Part shown: piece after piece, positions 7,678-19,546 of the stretch
Numbering within the stretch: position 1 is the first letter of the stretch
Layout of the letters: each line of letters begins with the position of its first letter
NCBI GenBank assembly: GCA_017694495.1
Contig: JADIMU010000009.1
Coordinates: 3,404-67,403, forward strand
Direction of reading: 5' to 3'
From: Candidatus Aphodenecus pullistercoris
GTDB taxonomy: Bacteria > Spirochaetota > Spirochaetia > Sphaerochaetales > Sphaerochaetaceae
DNA length: 64,000 nucleotides
Notes under the pieces: generated by a model
Told to the model about the DNA's origin: nothing
The model's database searches: none
The model's input: the letters and a program-made list of their open reading frames with translations, nothing else
Position numbers and translations under genes: made by a program

Positions 7678-10600
7678 TCAGGTCATCGTGTTGATTGTCA
7701 CACCATCAGCGTCAATGAGGTGGGCATTGCCATACCATTCACTTCCCCACTCCTCAGGAAGGTAGCCGCACATCAGCTGTATTCTACCAGTGAAGTCCGA
7801 GAAAGCATTTTCCCCCATTGCCGTGACACTTTCAGGGATGACAACAATGCTCACTGGGTCGAAAGTCGATGAATAGTTTTCCAGCTCTGTGAAAACACCA
7901 TCCGGGATTTCCGTCACACCCTCCTCGATGACCACAGACGCAGCTGAACAGCGGTTGAGGAGAGTCTTCAGATTCGGCGGGATGCATCCACTGATCTCGA
8001 TTCTGCGTGCTCCAGGAAGCTTGCCTTTGAAGTCTTTCGAATCAACCATCCGGATTGTTCCTACTTCAAGGCCAAGCAGGCCGTCTCCCTCAAAGCCTCC
8101 ATGGCCGATTTCAATCTCATCAACCGAGTCTACATTGCGGAAAGCGTAGGTGTCGACAAGCGTGACAGCATCTGGAATGTTGACTTTCTCCAGCGCATTG
8201 CAGTTGCGGAACACTTCGTTGCCGATTTTTGTCACAGAGGCAGGGAGGCGGACAGTCCTGAGTCTGATGCAGTCTGCGAAAACGAATTCCTCAAGCTCAC
8301 TGTCTTCAGGGATATTGACAGCCACAAGACTGTCGCTGCCGGCAAAACCATGCAGCTCTCTGACTGAAGCCGGGATATCCACTTCCGTGATTCCCGTGTC
8401 CTGGAAGGCCCAGTCCTCAATCACTTCAAGGCCCTCCGGAAGGTCGATTTCAATGAGCTCCTGGCAACCAGAGAAGCTTCGTGTGCCAATCTGCCTGAGA
8501 GTGGATCCAGAGGCAAACGTGATGCCGGATAGTCCAGTGCATCCAGCGAACACACCTGTGTAGTCGCTGCTGAGGTCGTCAATGCCCAGCACGCTGACAC
8601 TTGCAGGAATCACAATCTCCTCAATGGAAGTGCATCCGGCGAACACGCCATCACTCAGGCTCTCGACACCTTCTTCCAGCACCACAGCCGACAGATTCAC
8701 ACAGTCTTCAAAGACCCCGCCATCAAGGCTCTTCACATTCCCTGGGATTTCCACTCTCGTCAGAGTCCCGCAGGAACTGAACACACTCCCTTCTATGCTC
8801 TCGAGAGTCGATGGAAAAACGATTTCGCCAATGCAATCCAGCCCCTGGAAAAGGCTGGTGGACAGCGTCGTCCAGCCATCAAGCAGGACAAGTGTGAATG
8901 TGTTGTCAAGCGAGCTGAGGGCTGCTTGGATGGAGTTCATCTTGTAGCCATCGAAAGGACCGACACGAAGCTCTTCAAGATGCGACAGAGGAAGGCCTTT
9001 TCCGCCATCATATACGCTTCCCAGCTTTTCAATGTCGTCGATTTCGAGCACAGTTACATTGCAGCCATCAAAGCTGTGCTCGGAGCAGATCATTGTGTCA
9101 CCTGTGATGGAGCTGTCGAAAATGACTGTCCTCAGCGCAGTGCACCCAGAGAAGGAATAAGGGCACGCGTAGGAGATTCTGACTTCCTCCAGACTTGTGC
9201 ACCCCTGAAAGGCATAGTTGCTGGCATAGGCCACAGGCAAAGAAGCGTCCAGAGCCTCGCAGCGGAGAGAGGAAAGGGAAGAGCATCCGGAAAAGCCATA
9301 TTCGAAGACAGTCAGGGATGTATTTCCAGCTACAGTGAAGTCTGTCATAGCTGCGCAATCCTTGAAAGCATTCTTTCCGACCTGATAAGTGTTGCCTATT
9401 TCGACAGTCGCGAGCTGCGCACAGCCTTGGAAGGACTCTTCCGGCACGATGAAGGTGCCGCTGTTCTCATAGATGAAGGATTTCAGTCCGCTTCCCTTGA
9501 AGACGCCTGTGCCGAACCTCTCGACATCGCCGAGGATTTTGACAGCTCCAAGTCCCTGCACGCCGGAGAAGGCCCCATCAGGAATCTCGCTGACACTCTC
9601 AAGGACAATGTCGACATCAAAGTCCTCATATGCAAGGCACTCGCCAAGCCCCTCAGGCAGGCTGTCCCTGACGACAAGCGTGCCAATATGCTCAAAGGGC
9701 AGATCCTCAAAGCCTTCAGGAAGTGCTGTCAGCCCATCAAGGACTAAAGTCTGCAATTGAGTGCACCCGTCAAATGCCGCAACCCCGATTGACTGCACAG
9801 ACGGGCCGATTGTGACTTTCTCAAGACCGAGGCAGTTCTCAAAAGCACTGGCCTCTATGCTCTCCACATCCCCGACAAGCAGGATTTCCTTCACGCCAGA
9901 TCCTGCAAAGGCACTGGATTTGATGACAGTGACTCCATCAGGTATCTGGATGGATGCAAGGGCAGTGCAATTCTCGAAGGCGCCAGAGGGAATGAATGTG
10001 ATGGGTGAAGCTTGAGCGAAAACAACTTGAGAGAGAGATGAACAGCCACTGAAGACATTGTAGCCGAGCCCTGTGACAGAAGCTGGAATCGTGATTGAGG
10101 AAAGTGCTGTGCAATCCTTGAAGACCTCTGGCTCGATTGCCGCAACACCTTCTCCAATTGTGACATTCCCAAGTCTTTCCAGACCACTGAATGCCCCCTC
10201 GCCTATCTCCCTGACAGAGCCGGGAATCGTGATGGATGCAAGCGATGTGCAATCCTTGAAGGCATTCTCACCTATGACAGAGACAGCATCGCCAATATGG
10301 ATTCCTTCAAGAGAACAGGCTCCTTCGAGCATTTCATACGTGATTTCCTCAAGCTCTCCACAAACTGACATCTGCCGCACACTTCCCATTGCAGGACCAT
10401 TCCAGCTGTAGTCGCCAAGCATGGACTCAAGCTCCAGAACCTCAATGTTCCCTGTCCCGTCAAATGCATTCTCCCAGTCGCATGCAACCCCAGGGCCGAT
10501 TGCGAGATGGACAAGATTCGGCTTGTCGGCAAAAGCCTGCGCGGGAACAGCGCACGATGCCTGTGAGGATTCGATTATGATTGTCTCGAGACTCTCAGGC

Positions 10601-13077
10601 CAGGCAAGGCAATGGACATTGGTCAGGCCTCCAGTGTCAATGTACTTCAGTGCTGTGCATCCTTCCATCTGGGGTCTGTCGTCAAAGCGCTGCACCAAGC
10701 TTTCGGCATTGTCGCTGAAGACCACTTTCTCAAGCGAGGAACAGGATTCGAGGAAGCCCACTTCAACACCATAGCCCACTTCCAGACTGGTCACAGAGTC
10801 CGGGATGACCAGTTCCTTGAGGCTTGAGCAACCAGCGAAAGCGCCTCCTCCAATCGAAGTGAGACCAGAGGGCAAGTCAATGGCAACCAATGACTGGCAA
10901 TCGCGGAAAATCTCCTCTCCCAGTGTCCTGACAGAAGAAGGAATTTCGACACTCTCCAGCATGATGCAGTCTCTGAAGGCCTCATTCCCTACGGCTGCGA
11001 CATGGCTGTCCTGCGTAAATGCAACATTTGTCAGACTTGCACATCCCATGAAGGCAGCAGCGCCGACAGATTCGACAGAGGAAGGGAATTCCATGCCCTT
11101 GAGATTAGTGCAATCCTGGAAAGCATAATCCCCGATTGTCTTGACACCTTGCTGCAAGCTCACAGTCTCAAGCGCACTACAGTCACTGAAGGCGCTCTCT
11201 CCAATGGATGCAGAACTTATAGTGGCAGACTTCAGACTGGCACAGCCGGCAAATGCGCTGGGGGAAAAATACTCCACGCTCGCTGGGACTTTGACTAGTG
11301 TGAGTGCAGTGCCTGCGAAGGCCTCGCTGCCTATATAGTTCAGCCCATCACCCAGAATCACGCTATCCAGACTTGTGCACCCTTTGAAGGCCATGGATCC
11401 AATTTCTTTCACTTTTTCAAGATTTATGCTTTGCAGTTCAGCGCATCCTTCGAATGCATTGTTGCCTATGTATGCAATGTGCTCAGAGAGCACAAGCTCC
11501 TCAAGTGAAGCGCAGTCCAGGAAAGCCTCATCTTCTATATTCGTGACAGGTCCCTCGATGACCACGCTCTTCAGCGAAGGAAGCCCTGCAAGAGTCTCAG
11601 GAAGGTCCGCCACAGTAGCGCCAAGCACCAGATCCTCCAGAGCGGAGCCGACTGGCAGATTATCAGTCGATGCAAGAGATGCACCTGTGTCAATCCTCCT
11701 GACACTGGTGCATCCAGAGAATGCATCGGGCTCGATGATGACCTCATGATCCGGTATGACTATCTCTGACAATGACGTGCAAGCGAGGAATGCGCCGCTT
11801 GAAATCTGCGTCACATACTTGCCGAAGTCGACACTTTCCAGGGCCGTGCAATATGCGAATGTCTCATCCTCAATGGTCTTGACGTATGGTATCGAGATTG
11901 TGTCCAGGCTCGAGCAAGACCTGAATGCAGCTGAGCCGAGAGTGAGCGGTGAGGTGCCAAATGTAACAGATGTGAGACTTGCGCAATCACGGAAGGCATC
12001 CGAGCCGACCATGTTCACATTCTCAAGGCTGATGGTCTCAAGCCCCGTGCCTAGAAAGGCGCTGGCCCCGATTTCCACTACTGTGTCTGGAATGGTCAGA
12101 GCAGTCAGCGACCCGCAATATGCAAAAGCCTCCTGTCCGATTCGGCTCACGTGCTGAGGAAGCTGGATTCCCTCCAGGGCAGTACAACCCATAAAGGCCT
12201 GATAGGGAATACTCGAGATTTCAGACGGCAGCGATATCGTCTCGAGCCCTGTACAATCAGTGAAGGAAGAGCCGATGTCGACAAGCGAGTCAGGCAGGTC
12301 CACATACTTCAGTCTTGGACTGCCGCAGAAAGCATTGTCAAGGACTTGGACACCATCCTCTATTGTGACGCTCACGAGATTTGAAGTGCCAAGCGAGCTC
12401 ACCGAGCGGACAGGCATGCCATTGATGGTGCTCGGGACATAGAGCGTCGTCATGCTTTCCTTCATTCCTTCCGGCATTAGCCCGGAATATCCGATGATAT
12501 CGACACTCCAGCGATTGTCGCTGCTGATTTCGAACCACTCTTCAGGTATATGCCCATCACCAGCCTGTGCGCCCCCGGCTCCCCATTTCGCATAGACTGT
12601 CATGTCACTTGTGACAGGCTCGGCTGAAGAGAATGCAGACCCGTCGTCCTTGTACCAGCCGAGGAAGACATAGCCTTCACGCTGGGGACTCTGAGGCAGC
12701 GGGCAGCCATCCCCATACTTGACGGTGACTGTCTCTACAGAACCGAACAGGTCATCGAAGCTGATAGTGGCCACAGAGCTCCATGTCGCCTCCAGCGTCA
12801 GGTCAGAAGTGACAGGCAAGGAGAAATCATAGTAAGCATTCGTTCCGTATACCCGCCAGCCATCAAACAGCTGCCCTGAATCCGACACAGGATCCACAGG
12901 TCTTCTGACGTTATGGCCTTCCATGACAGTCATGCTTGCATACACTCCATTGTTCCGGAATGTGACCGTGTACAGCTGCGGCTCGGGATTTCCTCCCGTG
13001 TCGCATGAAGCCATCATGAGAAGCGCAAGCGCGATGACAAGTGCAATTGCAAGCCTGGATGCAAAACTGTAACGCAT
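7678..13077 (-). CDS. Large surface lipoprotein with InlB B-repeat-like domains and BspA-type LRRs (~1800 aa)
   Basis: Lipobox LMMASC; two F.GW..YDF..PVT.D.TL.A.W repeats; dozens of I...AF.GC..L..I.IP repeats. Likely start 13077 (alternative 13095). Confidence 0.88.
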   Translation of the reverse strand: MRYSFASRLAIALVIALALLMMASCDTGGNPEPQLYTVTFRNNGVYASMTVMEGHNVRRPVDPVSDSGQLFDGWRVYGTNAYYDFSLPVTSDLTLEATWSSVATISFDDLFGSVETVTVKYGDGCPLPQSPQREGYVFLGWYKDDGSAFSSAEPVTSDMTVYAKWGAGGAQAGDGHIPEEWFEISSDNRWSVDIIGYSGLMPEGMKESMTTLYVPSTINGMPVRSVSSLGTSNLVSVTIEDGVQVLDNAFCGSPRLKYVDLPDSLVDIGSSFTDCTGLETISLPSEISSIPYQAFMGCTALEGIQLPQHVSRIGQEAFAYCGSLTALTIPDTVVEIGASAFLGTGLETISLENVNMVGSDAFRDCASLTSVTFGTSPLTLGSAAFRSCSSLDTISIPYVKTIEDETFAYCTALESVDFGKYVTQISSGAFLACTSLSEIVIPDHEVIIEPDAFSGCTSVRRIDTGASLASTDNLPVGSALEDLVLGATVADLPETLAGLPSLKSVVIEGPVTNIEDEAFLDCASLEELVLSEHIAYIGNNAFEGCAELQSINLEKVKEIGSMAFKGCTSLDSVILGDGLNYIGSEAFAGTALTLVKVPASVEYFSPSAFAGCASLKSATISSASIGESAFSDCSALETVSLQQGVKTIGDYAFQDCTNLKGMEFPSSVESVGAAAFMGCASLTNVAFTQDSHVAAVGNEAFRDCIMLESVEIPSSVRTLGEEIFRDCQSLVAIDLPSGLTSIGGGAFAGCSSLKELVIPDSVTSLEVGYGVEVGFLESCSSLEKVVFSDNAESLVQRFDDRPQMEGCTALKYIDTGGLTNVHCLAWPESLETIIIESSQASCAVPAQAFADKPNLVHLAIGPGVACDWENAFDGTGNIEVLELESMLGDYSWNGPAMGSVRQMSVCGELEEITYEMLEGACSLEGIHIGDAVSVIGENAFKDCTSLASITIPGSVREIGEGAFSGLERLGNVTIGEGVAAIEPEVFKDCTALSSITIPASVTGLGYNVFSGCSSLSQVVFAQASPITFIPSGAFENCTALASIQIPDGVTVIKSSAFAGSGVKEILLVGDVESIEASAFENCLGLEKVTIGPSVQSIGVAAFDGCTQLQTLVLDGLTALPEGFEDLPFEHIGTLVVRDSLPEGLGECLAYEDFDVDIVLESVSEIPDGAFSGVQGLGAVKILGDVERFGTGVFKGSGLKSFIYENSGTFIVPEESFQGCAQLATVEIGNTYQVGKNAFKDCAAMTDFTVAGNTSLTVFEYGFSGCSSLSSLRCEALDASLPVAYASNYAFQGCTSLEEVRISYACPYSFSGCTALRTVIFDSSITGDTMICSEHSFDGCNVTVLEIDDIEKLGSVYDGGKGLPLSHLEELRVGPFDGYKMNSIQAALSSLDNTFTLVLLDGWTTLSTSLFQGLDCIGEIVFPSTLESIEGSVFSSCGTLTRVEIPGNVKSLDGGVFEDCVNLSAVVLEEGVESLSDGVFAGCTSIEEIVIPASVSVLGIDDLSSDYTGVFAGCTGLSGITFASGSTLRQIGTRSFSGCQELIEIDLPEGLEVIEDWAFQDTGITEVDIPASVRELHGFAGSDSLVAVNIPEDSELEEFVFADCIRLRTVRLPASVTKIGNEVFRNCNALEKVNIPDAVTLVDTYAFRNVDSVDEIEIGHGGFEGDGLLGLEVGTIRMVDSKDFKGKLPGARRIEISGCIPPNLKTLLNRCSAASVVIEEGVTEIPDGVFTELENYSSTFDPVSIVVIPESVTAMGENAFSDFTGRIQLMCGYLPEEWGSEWYGNAHLIDADGVTINTMT

Positions 13078-13091
13078 TTCTGTTCCTCCCC

Positions 13092-15242
13092 TCATTCCCC
13101 GCTCTCTCCAGTGAAGACAAGACTGACATCATCATTCCACCCAAGCCAGTTGGCATCCCATGATGTGGGGACATCGAAAGCCCCTCTCAGCTCGACTTCA
13201 GCCAGGAAGGGGCAGCTGTCGAACACATAGCCTGGAAGAGTCACGACAGTGACAGGCATGCTGACTTCCACAAGCTGACGCATTCGTGAGAAGGCATAGG
13301 TGCCAATGTTCACTACAGAGTCAGGGATATTCAGCACGCAAGGCCCGAGAGTGTTGTGAAAGGCATAGTCACCAATTTGTGTGAGCGACTCGGGCAAGAT
13401 GAAGTCTTTCAATGCCGAGCATCCGCTGAACGCCCTGTCTCCTATTGTCTGGACTCCATCAAGATCGACACTGGCAAGATTGCTGCATCCATAGAAAGCA
13501 TAATCCCCCACATCCACCACTGAATCCGGGAGCGTGACAGAGCGCAAGTGGCCACAGCCTGAGAACGCGCTGTCGGGAACAACTGTCACATCACCTTCAA
13601 TCGTGACTGCAATCAAATGCCCACATCCTGCGGCAAATTCCTCCGGAAGCTGGTCCACGCCCTTGCCGACTGTCAGGTGTGTGAGCGAAGTGCTGTACCT
13701 CAGGTCGAAGCCGTTGAGGTCTGTGACTCCATCGCCTATATCCAGACTCGTGAATCCGCAGTCGTAGAATGCCCAATCACCGATTTCAGTGACGCTGTCA
13801 CCTATGATCAGCTCTCCAACCGAAGTGCAGCCGGAGAAAGCCGACGATCCTATGCGCTCAAGGCTCGAAGGCAAAGAAATGCCACTCAGGCGAGTACAAC
13901 CAGAGAATGCATAATTCCCTATACTGACAAGGCCTTCTGGCAACTCGACTGTCTCAAGGCTGGAGTCCTGGTAGAAGGCGGAGTTGCCTATCGTGGAAAC
14001 GCCAGCGACAGAGACAGTCCTCAGACTGTCGCAATTGGCGAAGGCCCTTTCCGGGATATTGACACTGCATTTCAGCTCGACATCCTCAAGGGACGAACAG
14101 TACTCGAAGGCATACGCACCCAGGTATGTGATTGTCGACGGGACGACAACACTTTCCAGCGAATGGCAAACGGAGAAACATCCATCGCCAAGTATCTCAA
14201 GGCCTTCAGGCAGTGTGATCGAGACAAGCCTCGTACAACCATAAAAGGCCTCAACGCCTATTTCCTTCACGCCTTCGGGAATGTCTATGGATGAGAAAGC
14301 GCAAGCACTGAAAGCTTCATCACCAATTTCCTTCACACCTGCACCAATGCTGACATCGGCAAGGCGAGTGCAACTGGAGAATGCATAATCACCAATCCTC
14401 TCGACACCATCGCCAATCACAGCTCTGGAGAGAGCCGGGCAAAAATAAAAGGCAAAATCACCGATTTCCTTCACAGAGTCCGGAATGACGACAGAGACCA
14501 GATGATCCATTTGCTGGAACGCGTAGTCCCCTATTGTCTCCAGGCCTTCCGGGAGGATGATGCACCTTATATCATCGCCAAGGCCATTTGACTCGATGGA
14601 ACTGACTCTCATGCCACCTATTGTCTGAGGCACTTCGATGACATCAACACCCTCAGCCAGGTATGTCAGGCCTGTCACAGCCACTGTCCCGTCTCCGTTC
14701 TCCCGGACTGTGAAGAAATCCTCTCTGCCTTGAGATGCGCTTGCCCACAGTGGATACAGATAGAGATTCTGTGTCACAGGGGCATTGAAATCATAGGCTC
14801 TGGTGTAAAGGTCATCGAGATACCAGCCGAGGAACACATGCCCATTGCGCACAGGATCGGCAGGTCTTGCCACTCTATCACCGTGCTTCACTTCCATAAG
14901 CGTGGGGCCAGAGACTCCATCCGTGCCAAGAAAGTGTACAGTCCAGGAAGATGCAGGGGCATCGGCCACCCACTTCCCATACAGAGTGATGTCACGATTG
15001 ACAGGCATGGAGAAATCATAGGAGGGAGAAAGGAGGTTCGGATTCTCGTACCATCCTTGAGGCGGCTCAGGCAATTGTGGTGCAACGGCACATTCTCCAG
15101 CGCCGACAAGATACGTGGAGGTGCTACCATCCTCCAGGACAAAACACACTGTGTATGATGCGGCCGCCGGTGTGTCATTAGTGCAAGACGCTAATGGGAT
15201 GACCAGAAGCAGTGAACACAAAAAAGCAATGATTGCACGCAT
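13092..15242 (-). CDS. Surface lipoprotein with InlB B-repeat-like domains and BspA-type LRRs
   Basis: Lipobox PLASC; GWYLDD..YDFNAPVTQNLYLYPLW; LRR_5-type repeats. Confidence 0.88.
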   Translation of the reverse strand: MRAIIAFLCSLLLVIPLASCTNDTPAAASYTVCFVLEDGSTSTYLVGAGECAVAPQLPEPPQGWYENPNLLSPSYDFSMPVNRDITLYGKWVADAPASSWTVHFLGTDGVSGPTLMEVKHGDRVARPADPVRNGHVFLGWYLDDLYTRAYDFNAPVTQNLYLYPLWASASQGREDFFTVRENGDGTVAVTGLTYLAEGVDVIEVPQTIGGMRVSSIESNGLGDDIRCIILPEGLETIGDYAFQQMDHLVSVVIPDSVKEIGDFAFYFCPALSRAVIGDGVERIGDYAFSSCTRLADVSIGAGVKEIGDEAFSACAFSSIDIPEGVKEIGVEAFYGCTRLVSITLPEGLEILGDGCFSVCHSLESVVVPSTITYLGAYAFEYCSSLEDVELKCSVNIPERAFANCDSLRTVSVAGVSTIGNSAFYQDSSLETVELPEGLVSIGNYAFSGCTRLSGISLPSSLERIGSSAFSGCTSVGELIIGDSVTEIGDWAFYDCGFTSLDIGDGVTDLNGFDLRYSTSLTHLTVGKGVDQLPEEFAAGCGHLIAVTIEGDVTVVPDSAFSGCGHLRSVTLPDSVVDVGDYAFYGCSNLASVDLDGVQTIGDRAFSGCSALKDFILPESLTQIGDYAFHNTLGPCVLNIPDSVVNIGTYAFSRMRQLVEVSMPVTVVTLPGYVFDSCPFLAEVELRGAFDVPTSWDANWLGWNDDVSLVFTGESGE

Positions 15243-15268
15243 GAAATCCCCTCCTTCCTCTTGTCTTC

Positions 15269-15296
15269 ATGGTACCCCCCCCCCAGCAGAAGTCAA
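15269..15296 (-). promoter_or_regulatory. Promoter with poly-G spacer tract, candidate phase-variation switch
   Basis: Minus strand TTGACT-tctgct-G10-TACCAT; spacer 16 bp; G10 at 15275-15284. Confidence 0.7.
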
Positions 15297-15408
15297 GGAA
15301 AGCAGAGCCACATCGCTGCATACAATGTCCAAAATCAGCGGATTCATCCTGACAAGACCAGCTCTGGCATGAACATGCGCACAGGACTGTCCACCGCAGG
15401 CGGCATAT

Positions 15409-17651
15409 ATGCTAGAATTGGAGCGTTGGAGGAGACCGGTGACCAGACGACTTGTAGAGAACTTCCTGTACTATCTCACAGGCTTCTTCATCGTCTCGCT
15501 CTTTCTGGTGATCGCCTTCATCCTGGCCTTCCACAACACAGGCGAGAGTGTGCGCAACGAGATTGAGGTCAAGCTCGATGGAGGCATCACGCGCCTTGAG
15601 GACCTCGAGATGCGCATACGCATGCTGGGCAATGTCATCGTGCAGGACAGCGACTTCAACACACTGGTCTATCAGGACGAGAAGAGCTCTGCGGCAATCA
15701 CTGCGCTCAAGTCGATGAACAGCCTCTACCGCAACCTGGGCATCATAGCGAAGGATGTCGCCTACATGTTCACGCTCTTTCCCGACTCCCAGCTCTACCT
15801 CTCCTCAGTCGACACCAGTCTTGAATGGGAAGACTACTACTCGAAGTTCATGCGTCTCTCGATTGATGGCAAGGAGCTTTCCAGTGGCCAGGAGCTCTGG
15901 GACAGGCTGCACTCCTCGCTGGCTGAGGGGCAGACACATCTGAGACTTGACTACATCTCCTACATCTCGGCAACCGGAAATGTCACAGAGTACGAGCCGG
16001 TTCTCATCATCCAGTCATCGAGCGGGCTCGGCAGCCGCCCCCAGTCGATAACAGGCTATCTCATAGGCAAGGACGTGCTGCTCTCGACACTGCTTGGCGA
16101 CAGCCTGGCAAGTGTCGCCCAGGTGCGCATCAGCGACAACAGCAGGGCCTCGTGCTTGTCGACACGATGGCAGGAGAGGACCCCAATGCGGACGAGTACT
16201 ACATCTTCGAGGGCGAGAGCGAGCTTCTGGGCTACACGATAGAGCTTGCAGTCCCAGTATCATACTTCACCAGCCAGCTGTGGCCCATCATAGGGCTCCT
16301 GTCCGTCGTGATCGGTGCCGGCATACTCTCCGGCCTCGCCTTCGCGGCAGTCTATGCCCTTGTCCACTACCGCAGTGTGCGCACAATCATCAGGAGCATG
16401 GACGGCGGGAGCGGCCGCCTGATCGGCGACTTCGCCGACATCCAGCAGCGCATCATACAGCTGCGCAAGGAAGGTGAGAGCTTCAAGGCCGAAGCCGACG
16501 AGCTGGGCAGGCAGAACCAGGCCATACAGTTCCAGAACATACTGCTCCAGGGACCGAGGAGCCAGAGCGACAGGGAGCTGGCAAGCCGTCTCCTGCCCTT
16601 CGCAGAGGCTGGCTACATCGTCGCTGTCGTGCGCCTCCTGAAAGGTGGCAAAGAACAGTGGTATCAGGACGGGCTCTACACACTGCTCTCGCAAAGCCCC
16701 TTCGCAGGAGGACTCACAGTGCCATCGGGCTCCAGCGACGAGGTCTTCATCCTGCCCGTCAGGGACGAGAACGAGTATCAGAGCCAGATCGAGAGGCACC
16801 TTGGCGAGCTCTTCCAGAGCGATGCCGACACTGTTCTCCATGTCGGCATCTCGCAGCCCAGCCATGAGGCCGAGGAGCTCAGCGTCCTCTACGAGGAGGC
16901 GGAGCGGGCCCTCGCCTCGCTCTACAAGTACGAGAGCGAGAGCGCCTATGTCTTCTACGAGGACGAAAAGCGCACAAGTCTGCTGGAGAGTTTCAACATA
17001 GAGACGCTCTCGAGGCTGAAGAACCTACTCCTGCGCAGTGAGGAGAGCGATGCCACTGCCCTGCTCCACGACATCTTCCACAAGGCGGCCGCCTACCCTC
17101 TCGAGGCCGAAGAGAGGAAGGAGGCGATCTGGCACAGCCTGTGCAATGTCTTCCAGACCGTCTTCATGACACTGAAGACAGACAGTCTCGAGACAGGCAA
17201 GTTCCACAGCGACATGTCAATGGCCCAGATGGAGGAGCACTTCACGAGCCTGACCCATGAGCTGTGCGAGGCAACGAGCCGCAGCAGGAAGAGCCACAAC
17301 AAAGAGCTTCTCGATGCCATACTCAGGGCAATCGATGCCAGCTATCAGAACCAGGGGACCTCGGCCTACACAGTCAGCAGGGCTGTCGGCATCAGCGAGA
17401 AGTACATGCTCAGCTTTTTCCGCGAGCAGATGGGCACGAGCTTCCCGCAATACCTCCTCGTGCGCCGCCTCATGACAGCAAAGGCCATGCTGGAGAATGG
17501 AGGCGAGTCGAACGAGCACATTGCATCAGCCACAGGATTTGGCAGCCTGAACACCTTCTACCGCAACTTCTCGAAGTACTTCGGCCTCAGTCCGAAATCC
17601 TACCGCGACGGTCTGGGAAAAGAATCATCTGAAGCTGACAACAGACTATGA
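15409..17651 (+). pseudogene. YesS-like membrane-anchored AraC regulator split by a frameshift near 16140-16150
   Basis: ORF 15409-16242 has a TM and sensor region; ORF 16152-17651 has a second TM and an AraC C-terminus (IASATGFGSLNTFYRNFSKYFGLSPKSYR). Confidence 0.75.
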
Positions 17652-17760: not shown

Positions 17761-18410
17761 ATGGAAGGCAAAGCCGCAGCAAGCGAGAGAGAGTTCTTCA
17801 AGGCAGTGTTCATCAGTGACGCGGACAGCGTCATGGAAGGGGTTGCAAAGGGGCCTGCAACGAGTGACGAGGCTTTCTTCAATGCGCTTTCCGACAATCT
17901 TGAAGATGTGAAGGCAGCCGCATCGAGGGCTGACTGGCAAGGGGCAAGGAAACTTTTCGCCTCCTGCATCAGGAGCCAGCTGGACAGGGAGCGCTTCTTC
18001 ACAATTCCCTACGAAATTCCAGAGAACATATTCAAGCTGCCCGGAGAGAGCGACAGCGAGGCCGTGAAGAGGATTGAGGACTTCAAGGTCGTATCAGTCG
18101 GTGTGATGGGCGACTTCTCGGCGCAGGGCCGCATAGGCTGGAAGAGCAACCCGACATACAACGCTTACAAAGAGTGGACCTGGCAGCTCTCGCGCCACAA
18201 CGAGATCAAGATGATGGCCCATGAGTACAATCTGACAGGCGACGAGAGGATTGCGCACAGCGCGCTTGGCATCATGCGCTCCTGGATAGAGGATGCAGTC
18301 ATGCCTCCACTGGGCACCAGCGGCTATGCCACCAAGTGCTGGAGGACAATAGAATGCGGCATCAGGATGGGCGCGAACTGGCCATACATCCTTTTCTCTT
18401 TTTCTTATTT
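17761..18410 (+). pseudogene. Heparinase II/III-like lyase, N-terminal fragment truncated at IS1595
   Basis: EWTWQLSRH and WRTIECGIRM motifs; frame enters the IS end and stops at 18438. Confidence 0.7.
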
Positions 18411-19546
18411 GGCCTTTGGTGACATGACCCGCCAGTAGGACAATATATGTCCCACATCACCTGCCAGAAAGGGCTTGTAGACAGGAGGAAGCCCATGGAA
18501 GAACTCAGTTTTGCCGAATATCTCAGGAAGGAGATGGGACTCGACGACTACCAGATCTCAAAGATGCAGGAGCTGCTGGCCTCATTCGAACAGACGGAGG
18601 ACATGTCAGCGGCGACAGATGGTGTGGAAATCTGTCCCAAATGCGGGACAGCCCATCCGAAAGTCGTCAGGAGCGGCTTTGCCGGGAGCGGCAAGCAGAT
18701 GTTCAGATGCGCATCATTCGGAAGGAGGTTCACATATGACAGTGGGCGCCTGACATGGTATTCCCACCAGAATGCCGACCAGTGGAAGACGCTGATGCTG
18801 GACACCTTCAGCGGACAGAGCCTCAGGAGCACCAGCGGCAGGATTGGAGTAAACGTCGAGACCGCATTCAACATGCGCCATCGTCTGATGTGCGTTCTGG
18901 AGAAGGTTCTGGATGATGAAGTCCTCTCCGGCAAGGTCGAACTGGACGAGACATATGTGGATTCGAGCCGCAAGGGCGTCGGCTGCGGACGTGATGCCGG
19001 CTTTGGAACGGTCGTCCAGAAGGTGAAGCGTGGGCTGTCCAGGCAGAAGGTGTGCATCCTGAGCGCAGTGGACAAGGATGGAAACGCCTTCGCCAGGGCA
19101 TACAACTGCGGCACTCCCAGCCAGGACAACGCCATGGAGCTTGCCTGCCACCTTGCCGATGACAGCAGCGTCACCACAGACGACACAGTCGCATATGAGA
19201 GGCTTCTTGAGTCGAACGGCTGCTTCCATCGCGTCTGCCAGGACTGCAGGGACCACAAGGCGGAGGTCAACCTCAACAGGATCAGCTCCTTCCATTCGAT
19301 GATCAAGGATTTCTACCGCGGCTACAGGGGAGTGGCGACGAAGTACATCAACAGGTATGCAGCTGTGTTCTCATTCATCTGGAAGTTCAGGAAGTTGAAG
19401 GATGGCGACCTCCATGGGAAGATCAAAGCAATGGTCGACAAGAGCGGCTTTGCAATCAGGACTGGCGTCGTCCAGACCTACAGGCTGTTCACACCTCAGG
19501 ACATCGAATGGGTCGTCGCAAGCTGAATGTCACCAAATCCCAAATA
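18406..19546 (+). mobile_element. IS1595-family insertion sequence
   Basis: 20-bp terminal IRs TATTTGGCCTTTGGTGACAT (18406-18425) and reverse complement TATTTGGGATTTGGTGACAT (19527-19546), 2 mismatches; no target duplication seen. Confidence 0.85.
18495..19526 (+). CDS. IS1595-family transposase
   Basis: Zn ribbon CPKCG (second pair reads CASF), VELDETYV, TTDD, NRISSFHSMIK, ATKYINRY. Confidence 0.88.
   Translation: MEELSFAEYLRKEMGLDDYQISKMQELLASFEQTEDMSAATDGVEICPKCGTAHPKVVRSGFAGSGKQMFRCASFGRRFTYDSGRLTWYSHQNADQWKTLMLDTFSGQSLRSTSGRIGVNVETAFNMRHRLMCVLEKVLDDEVLSGKVELDETYVDSSRKGVGCGRDAGFGTVVQKVKRGLSRQKVCILSAVDKDGNAFARAYNCGTPSQDNAMELACHLADDSSVTTDDTVAYERLLESNGCFHRVCQDCRDHKAEVNLNRISSFHSMIKDFYRGYRGVATKYINRYAAVFSFIWKFRKLKDGDLHGKIKAMVDKSGFAIRTGVVQTYRLFTPQDIEWVVAS

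Follow-up and report, generated by a model that had tools for sequence, protein, structure and literature searches.

Simple-repeat phase variation has mostly been described in pathogens. In Mycoplasma hyorhinis, the vlp lipoprotein genes have poly-A promoter spacers, one per gene, with combinatorial on/off states. A poly-G tract between the -35 and -10 elements is known from the spirochaete Treponema pallidum, where it precedes tp0126, the gene of an OmpW homologue; there the mechanism is experimentally established, the tract length varies between as well as within isolates, and a spacing of 17 bp works best (PMC7864442). According to the same article, tprE/G/J, tprF/I and tprL of T. pallidum also have poly-G tracts, the spacer poly-G of porA in Neisseria meningitidis has been established experimentally to set the -35/-10 distance and to grade the transcription of a surface protein, and a poly-C tract lies at the -35 box of opc in the latter species (PMC7864442). 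With respect to the type of protein, the BspA-like surface proteins of Candidatus Mycoplasma girerdii are phase-variable by means of CA dinucleotide repeats (PMC5476646). Our literature search on Sphaerochaeta and its relatives returned no paper on phase variation driven by repeats.

The locus described here lies in a 64,000-nt stretch of DNA from Candidatus Aphodenecus pullistercoris, which was analysed as a whole and is referred to as the window. The PcrA helicase of this genome is 78-79% identical to its counterparts in uncultured Spirochaetales/Sphaerochaetaceae genomes of gut metagenomes. The locus shares with tp0126 that the organism is a spirochaete, that an uninterrupted poly-G tract lies between -35 and -10 boxes of the sigma-70 type and that the gene concerned codes for an envelope protein. 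From our point of view, it is likely, judging from the sequence, that this run of ten G represents a slippage-prone tract in a sigma-70-type promoter spacer that would vary the transcription of a two-gene BspA/LRR surface-lipoprotein operon in a heritable and reversible manner.

Layout of the putative promoter and the downstream operon

All elements of the putative promoter are found on the minus strand. Reading of the sequence together with a consensus scan identified a -35 hexamer TTGACT (15291..15296) and a -10 hexamer TACCAT (15269..15274), the latter matching the consensus at four of six positions. Between them, a linker TCTGCT (15285..15290) leads from the -35 box to the G10 tract (15275..15284; C10 on the plus strand), which directly adjoins the -10 box and is marked as hypermutable by its alleles in other assemblies. 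In the window, the spacer of this arrangement (TTGACT-TCTGCT-G10-TACCAT, 15296..15269) is 16 bp long. The A of the ATG at 15242 lies 27 bp past the last base of the -10 box, with 26 bases between the two, and the distance from the tract to the ATG is 32 nt. A short leader is predicted at 15243..15268, with transcription expected to start near 15262; the 26 nt between -10 box and ATG include a ribosome-binding site (GGAAGGAGGGG), and the Shine-Dalgarno core GGAGG was read at 15254..15250. The first-pass annotation had placed the poly-G run in the promoter spacer and had given the spacer length of 16 bp and the distance of 27 bp to the ATG, and every detail that was checked proved accurate on re-reading. 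Its remark that the window holds no comparable homopolymer was likewise borne out, as the next longest runs are A7 and T7. Within 15000..15700, the consensus scan returned the poly-G promoter as the sole sigma-70-like site on either strand; such a single match is not significant alone, with 0.5 expected in this interval, and it is the recurrence in relatives that is significant.

Two large genes follow on the same strand. Open reading frames, Pfam profiles and lipoboxes define a BspA-type LRR lipoprotein of 716 aa (13092..15242) and a second one of about 1800 aa (7678..13095), the reading frame of which comprises 1805 aa; its likely start, the ATG at 13077, yields 1799 aa, as in other assemblies. 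Since the two genes overlap or are at most 15 nt apart, they can be regarded as an operon, and together they span about 7.57 kb. LRR_5 (PF13306) is detected with E-values of 2.7e-143 and 3.7e-266, and the scores of 470.5 and 867.7 bits, compared with a Pfam gathering cut-off of 27.7, reflect multiple repeats. Besides LRR_5, the operon proteins contain Flg_new (Listeria-Bacteroides repeat) domains, with one Flg_new domain and six LRR_5 stretches in the first protein. By inspection of the translations, both signal peptides end in a lipobox, namely MRAIIAFLCSLLLVIPLASC (LASC) in the first and ...LALLMMASC (MASC) in the second protein, so that Pfam profile and lipobox agree for both genes with the two-gene BspA/LRR lipoprotein operon that had been proposed initially. 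A DNA search with the promoter region in 40 relatives revealed no orthologue of the operon in other species of the genus, and a homologue search with the 716-aa protein returned distant LRR proteins only (at most 40% identity), which did not help in tracing the promoter.

A gene for an AraC/HTH_18 regulator (15409..17651, plus strand) diverges from the operon and is interrupted in the window by a frameshift of 1 bp. This AraC-type regulator may co-regulate the operon and add conventional control. Its middle domain is GGDEF_2-like, and the counterpart of the window gene on contig L008 lies at 592-2805. The break separates a 277-aa from a 447/499-aa reading frame and goes back to a 1-bp deletion near 16142-16144, at a non-repeat site; the frameshift is present in the window and in six of seven assemblies, and in ERZ17292900 the additional base is present and the gene is intact (737 aa). 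Further along the plus strand (17761..19526), a heparinase II/III-like gene retains an N-terminal fragment of 225 aa in the window, with the gene of an IS1595-family transposase (359 aa) behind it; in the haplotypes L006 and L008 the heparinase gene is intact (633 aa) and no insertion sequence is found. Near the start of the heparinase-like gene, haplotypes differ by (CT)4 versus (CT)3 at about 17785..17793 of the window, which may represent a second small repeat polymorphism.

Tract lengths in natural copies and across the genome

Alleles of the focal tract were read from public assembly contigs with exact matches to the 716-aa protein or to the proteins encoded next to it, which amounts to about 14 samples. 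Accessions joined by a slash below apparently represent one sample assembled with two programs (SPAdes and MEGAHIT), and the tract length agrees in all four such pairs. The commonest natural allele is G9, corresponding to a spacer of 15 bp (SRR9113726, ERZ16268176, ERZ16268182, ERZ17292900, ERZ8903503/ERZ27234689, ERZ8899206/ERZ27234753 and SRR9113729). G10 with its 16-bp spacer occurs in the window and in ERZ27234742, and G12, giving 18 bp, in ERZ8898360/ERZ27234754, ERZ8896685/ERZ27234687 and SRR9113716, where the contig begins inside the tract and at least 12 G are present. In a fourth allele, GGGT-G10 (ERZ16268180 and ERR10610561), the linker reads TCTGC-GGGT and the spacer extends to 19 bp. 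No G11 allele was found among the approximately 14 samples. Exact-flank pattern scans of genome contigs and of JGI metagenome contigs gave no matches.

The surroundings of the tract are strikingly uniform. Apart from the tract itself, about 95 nt around it are identical in every contig, and the 8.15 kb compared contain no more than 13 SNP sites and two indels, one in a (CT)n repeat and the other of a single base. One contig (L004) differs from the window over the 8.15 kb solely in the tract, with zero SNPs, and the SNP pattern of the window is found together with G9 or with G10. As the tract differs between copies that otherwise match, its length turns over more quickly than point mutations build up. 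In part, however, tract length follows the haplotype, with both G12 pairs having one SNP in common, so that a portion of the variation predates a single population. A variable tract had been anticipated by the first-pass annotation, and instead of invariance across strains we indeed find G9, G10, G12 and GGGT-G10 within identical flanks.

Long G/C runs are rare in this genome, and their lengths are distributed in an uneven manner. The assembly that contains the window (2.07 Mb, 59% G+C, 70 contigs) has about 1531 G/C runs of length 5, 119 of length 6, two of length 7, none of length 8, five of length 9 and three of length 10, and both runs of length 7 sit inside tRNA genes. A model of independent bases expects roughly 520 runs with 7-8 bases and roughly 50 with at least 9; we rejected it as a null for the tract being unexpected, because it predicts those approximately 50 long runs. 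The bimodal run lengths point to a genome that generally avoids G/C runs and at the same time retains a small, distinct class of long ones.

The eight members of this class are located in two promoter spacers (the focal one and one on contig C9), in the 5' part of three genes for lipoproteins or outer-membrane-like proteins, in one acyltransferase gene and in two intergenic regions. The second poly-G promoter, TTGACA-ATAAGGA-G9-TAGACT (C9:4651..4678, plus strand), lies about 70 nt upstream of an operon for a 118-aa membrane protein, a 125-aa lipoprotein and a TM2-domain protein; AAGACT replaces TAGACT in one strain. The intragenic G9/C9 tracts (C54:9915..9923, C57:8667..8675 and C4:7473..7481) belong to two paralogous outer-membrane-like proteins with a faint Wzi-like match and to a 478-aa lipoprotein. 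At G9, as in this assembly, the reading frame of the C54 gene is disrupted and the gene consequently off, and G10 would restore the frame. The two intergenic cases are a compound T9G10 tract in an AT-rich region (C27:24759..24777) and a G10 tract about 430 nt upstream of another outer-membrane-like paralogue (C61:11563..11572); this paralogue also shows an in-frame TGA after its signal peptide. In its sequence features, this set of eight runs is the profile of a contingency-locus set. MutS and MutL are intact in this genome, as they likewise are in other species with simple-repeat phase variation.

The spacer preference of the organism can be approximated from its own promoters. The pattern TTGAC[AT]-Nx-TAnnnT occurs at 3 sites for x = 15, 17 sites for x = 16, 38 for x = 17 and 27 for x = 18, with a background of about 7. 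This peak indicates that the promoters of this genome prefer 17 bp and use 16-18 bp, not 15 bp, and it agrees with the earlier statement that a 17-bp spacer is optimal. As the -35/-10 spacing peaks at 17 bp here, the 16 bp of G10 are sub-optimal, and it is plausible that G10 represents a sub-optimal expression state. The promoter in this assembly is probably weak to intermediate, and G9, with its 15-bp spacer, probably corresponds to the off state.

In the mechanism that we propose, slipped-strand mispairing would change the number of G and with it both the distance and the phasing of the -35 and -10 boxes. The expected output would be best for G11, weaker for G10 and G12, and poor or absent for G9 and the 19-bp allele. 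Each change in length, being heritable and reversible, would turn the transcription of surface-protein genes spanning about 7.6 kb up or down, and the result would be a population of cells or lineages with different amounts of two large LRR lipoproteins. We infer that the boxes form a working promoter, that tract length sets its expression and that a lineage can switch over short periods. Since its length differs between strains that are identical in other respects, the poly-G tract is very probably a random expression switch. Against the model count the -10 box with its four of six consensus positions, the partial association of tract length with the haplotype and the absence of G11, the supposedly optimal allele, among the approximately 14 samples. 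The commonest allele, G9, is presumably silent. A simple rule in which 17 bp means on is further at odds with the cassette of a sister genus, which rests at 19 bp.

A recurrent cassette in Spirochaetia and rival readings

The arrangement of the focal promoter recurs in relatives. Among 19 genomes of the genus, TTGACW-N4-8-G9 is found at 18 distinct sites in eight genomes; TTGACW is invariant, the G run comprises 9-13 bases and TAnnnT follows directly at all 18 sites. A gene whose product has a signal peptide and a lipobox cysteine lies behind 17 of these sites, and the remaining one precedes a gene for a secreted protein, with the gene start usually 25-45 nt downstream and behind a Shine-Dalgarno site. 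Spacers of 16 bp predominate (11 of 18), the others being among 13, 15, 17, 19 and 21 bp. Across the 121 genomes of the family, a search that allowed spacers of 9-25 bp yielded 62 sites in 20 genomes, all with TAnnnT directly after the tract and all with spacers of 15-22 bp, with peaks at 16 and 19 bp (20 sites each) and a low count at 17 bp. At the level of the class, the full pattern TTGACW-linker-G(9+)-TAnnnT was detected in 31 of 401 Spirochaetia genomes, belonging to 12 of 155 genera. Reversed-pattern controls gave zero matches in genus, family and class. The order of -35 box, G tract, -10 box, Shine-Dalgarno site and lipoprotein start at dozens of related sites thus backs the promoter assignment at the focal locus.

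The poly-C version of the pattern was found at 2 sites in the same 20 family genomes that hold the 62 poly-G sites; many of the latter are paralogous copies, and the strand bias therefore rests on fewer independent origins. Tandem arrays of poly-G lipoprotein genes are present in two genomes (G003 and G009). A 16-bp spacer is seen in the genus of the window and in one other, and one sister genus keeps TACC just before the G run, with a 19-bp spacer (TTGACA-N7-TACC-G9-TAGNCT). The lack of G11, the frequency of the presumably silent G9, the 19-bp cassette of the sister genus and the strong preference for G over C on the non-template strand could fit a design that rests in a low state or a direct role of the G run by the -10 box, or could reflect the shared descent of paralogous cassettes.

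One could object that the observed length differences are Illumina homopolymer or assembler errors and that the tract is really constant. Poly-G does disturb these assemblies, as several samples have contigs that terminate within 0-5 nt of a G tract (L010, L016, L017, L099, L112, L113, L119 and L151), and the coverage is low (2-19x). However, other tracts of the same genome are far more uniform: the intragenic G9 on contig C57 counts nine in six of six unbiased contigs retrieved via the neighbouring gene, and the promoter tract on C9 counts nine in seven of eight contigs and ten in the eighth. With these two tracts nearly constant, noise alone is without the power to explain a range from G9 to G12 at the focal site. 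The equal lengths that two assembly programs gave for what are apparently the same samples also speak against errors, and neither 3-base differences (G9 versus G12) nor a GGGT insertion allele common to two unrelated studies is typical of consensus errors. Taken together, we regard a constant tract as extremely improbable. The contig ends near G tracts lie at identical positions across samples and three assemblers, mostly on the -10 side. We considered these ends as a sign of mixed tract lengths within a sample and rejected this, since the end points recur across assemblers and k-mer sizes; some of them lie a few bases past the tract, which poly-G sequencing trouble at low coverage fits at least equally well.

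If the tract is indeed variable, it could still act in another way. The G repeat in the leader of Helicobacter pylori tlpB is the target of the small RNA RepG, and with merely 32 nt to the ATG the focal tract might similarly be transcribed from a promoter further upstream and work post-transcriptionally; for instance, a C/U-rich small RNA could target it, or it could change how accessible the ribosome-binding site is. We consider this very unlikely, as the consensus scan found no second sigma-70-like site on the minus strand of the 166-bp intergenic region and an Rfam scan of that region matched no family. Moreover, TTGACW (at 15-22 bp) upstream of the tract and TAnnnT directly after it at about 80 related sites is the geometry of a promoter and not of a leader, and in one relative (L125) the ATG follows the -10 box after 7 nt, leaving no room for a tract-bearing leader. 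A reading that accepts the promoter takes the G tract as a fixed structural part of the lineage's lipoprotein promoters, for example as a G-rich element in contact with sigma immediately before the -10 box, with length changes being a tolerated side effect rather than a switch. That G occupies the non-template strand beside the -10 box at 62 sites, compared with two sites for C, would suit such an element, whereas a pure spacer-length device need not be strand-specific; the single prevailing length in the genus (16 bp, 11 of 18 sites) and the nearly constant second promoter tract on C9 point in the same direction. On the other hand, a structural G-rich element would work equally well, and more stably, if interrupted, yet the tracts stay uninterrupted at nine or more in a genome that is otherwise without G/C runs of 7-8 outside tRNA genes. 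The focal tract also produces spacers of 15-19 bp in nature, while the counts for the genome's own promoters fall to background at 15 bp, and the argument from the strand is tempered by the many paralogous sites. A purely structural role is hence, in our opinion, unlikely.

Returning to the tract as an expression switch, we would tentatively propose a wider interpretation, which we hold to be possible and would put at somewhat below even chances. The focal tract would then be one case of a lineage-wide cassette, in that Spirochaetia, especially gut Sphaerochaetaceae and a Treponema-like family, repeatedly put an uninterrupted G(9+) run on the non-template strand against the -10 box of lipoprotein promoters. 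These would rest at 16 or 19 bp and avoid 17 bp, just as the focal locus is seen with 15, 16, 18 and 19 bp and never with 17 bp. The surface coat of commensal spirochaetes could in this way be governed by a random switchboard of many loci that is low by default, and the G run might contact the polymerase.

Relation to known systems

The main worth of the present locus lies in its natural allele series and in the breadth of the cassette in spirochaetes. It provides a natural and well-documented case from a gut commensal, a spirochaete that is uncultured, in which the cargo consists of very large adhesin-like lipoproteins of the BspA type, and it demonstrates that public metagenomes yield genuine series of alleles. 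It also indicates that poly-G promoters of the tp0126 type, known from the agent of syphilis, belong to a much wider habit among spirochaetes. In practical terms, TTGACW-linker-G(9+)-TAnnnT offers a simple signature for finding variable surface-protein genes in metagenome-assembled genomes, and for genome assemblers it would be useful to have the tract lengths and nearby contig breaks flagged as biologically unstable.

The comparison with T. pallidum is the closest, and it also brings out the differences. The host of tp0126 is a pathogen and its cargo a porin, whereas the focal host is a commensal of the gut, an uncultured member of the Sphaerochaetaceae, and the cargo a two-gene BspA/LRR lipoprotein operon with a predicted promoter. 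Unlike at tp0126, the focal tract leaves no gap to the -10 box, and copies of the cassette precede many lipoprotein genes in the family. In Neisseria, which belongs to another phylum, porA is a single porin gene as opposed to a two-gene lipoprotein operon, and both poly-G and poly-C are employed, whereas the family cassette described here predominantly uses G on the non-template strand (62 versus 2 sites).

With respect to lipoproteins, the tandem poly-G arrays of G003 and G009 resemble the vlp genes of M. hyorhinis; the vlp system differs in its poly-A tracts and in belonging to the Mollicutes, and the present genome has tracts in two promoters only. Candidatus M. girerdii is similar in that BspA-type LRR proteins are found under simple-sequence repeats and were detected from metagenomic data, but its repeats are intragenic and switch translation by frameshift, whereas the focal repeat lies in the promoter and would act on transcription. 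Overall, the type of mechanism is already known from porA and tp0126, and the poly-G promoter of this gut spirochaete is a well-supported further case of it.
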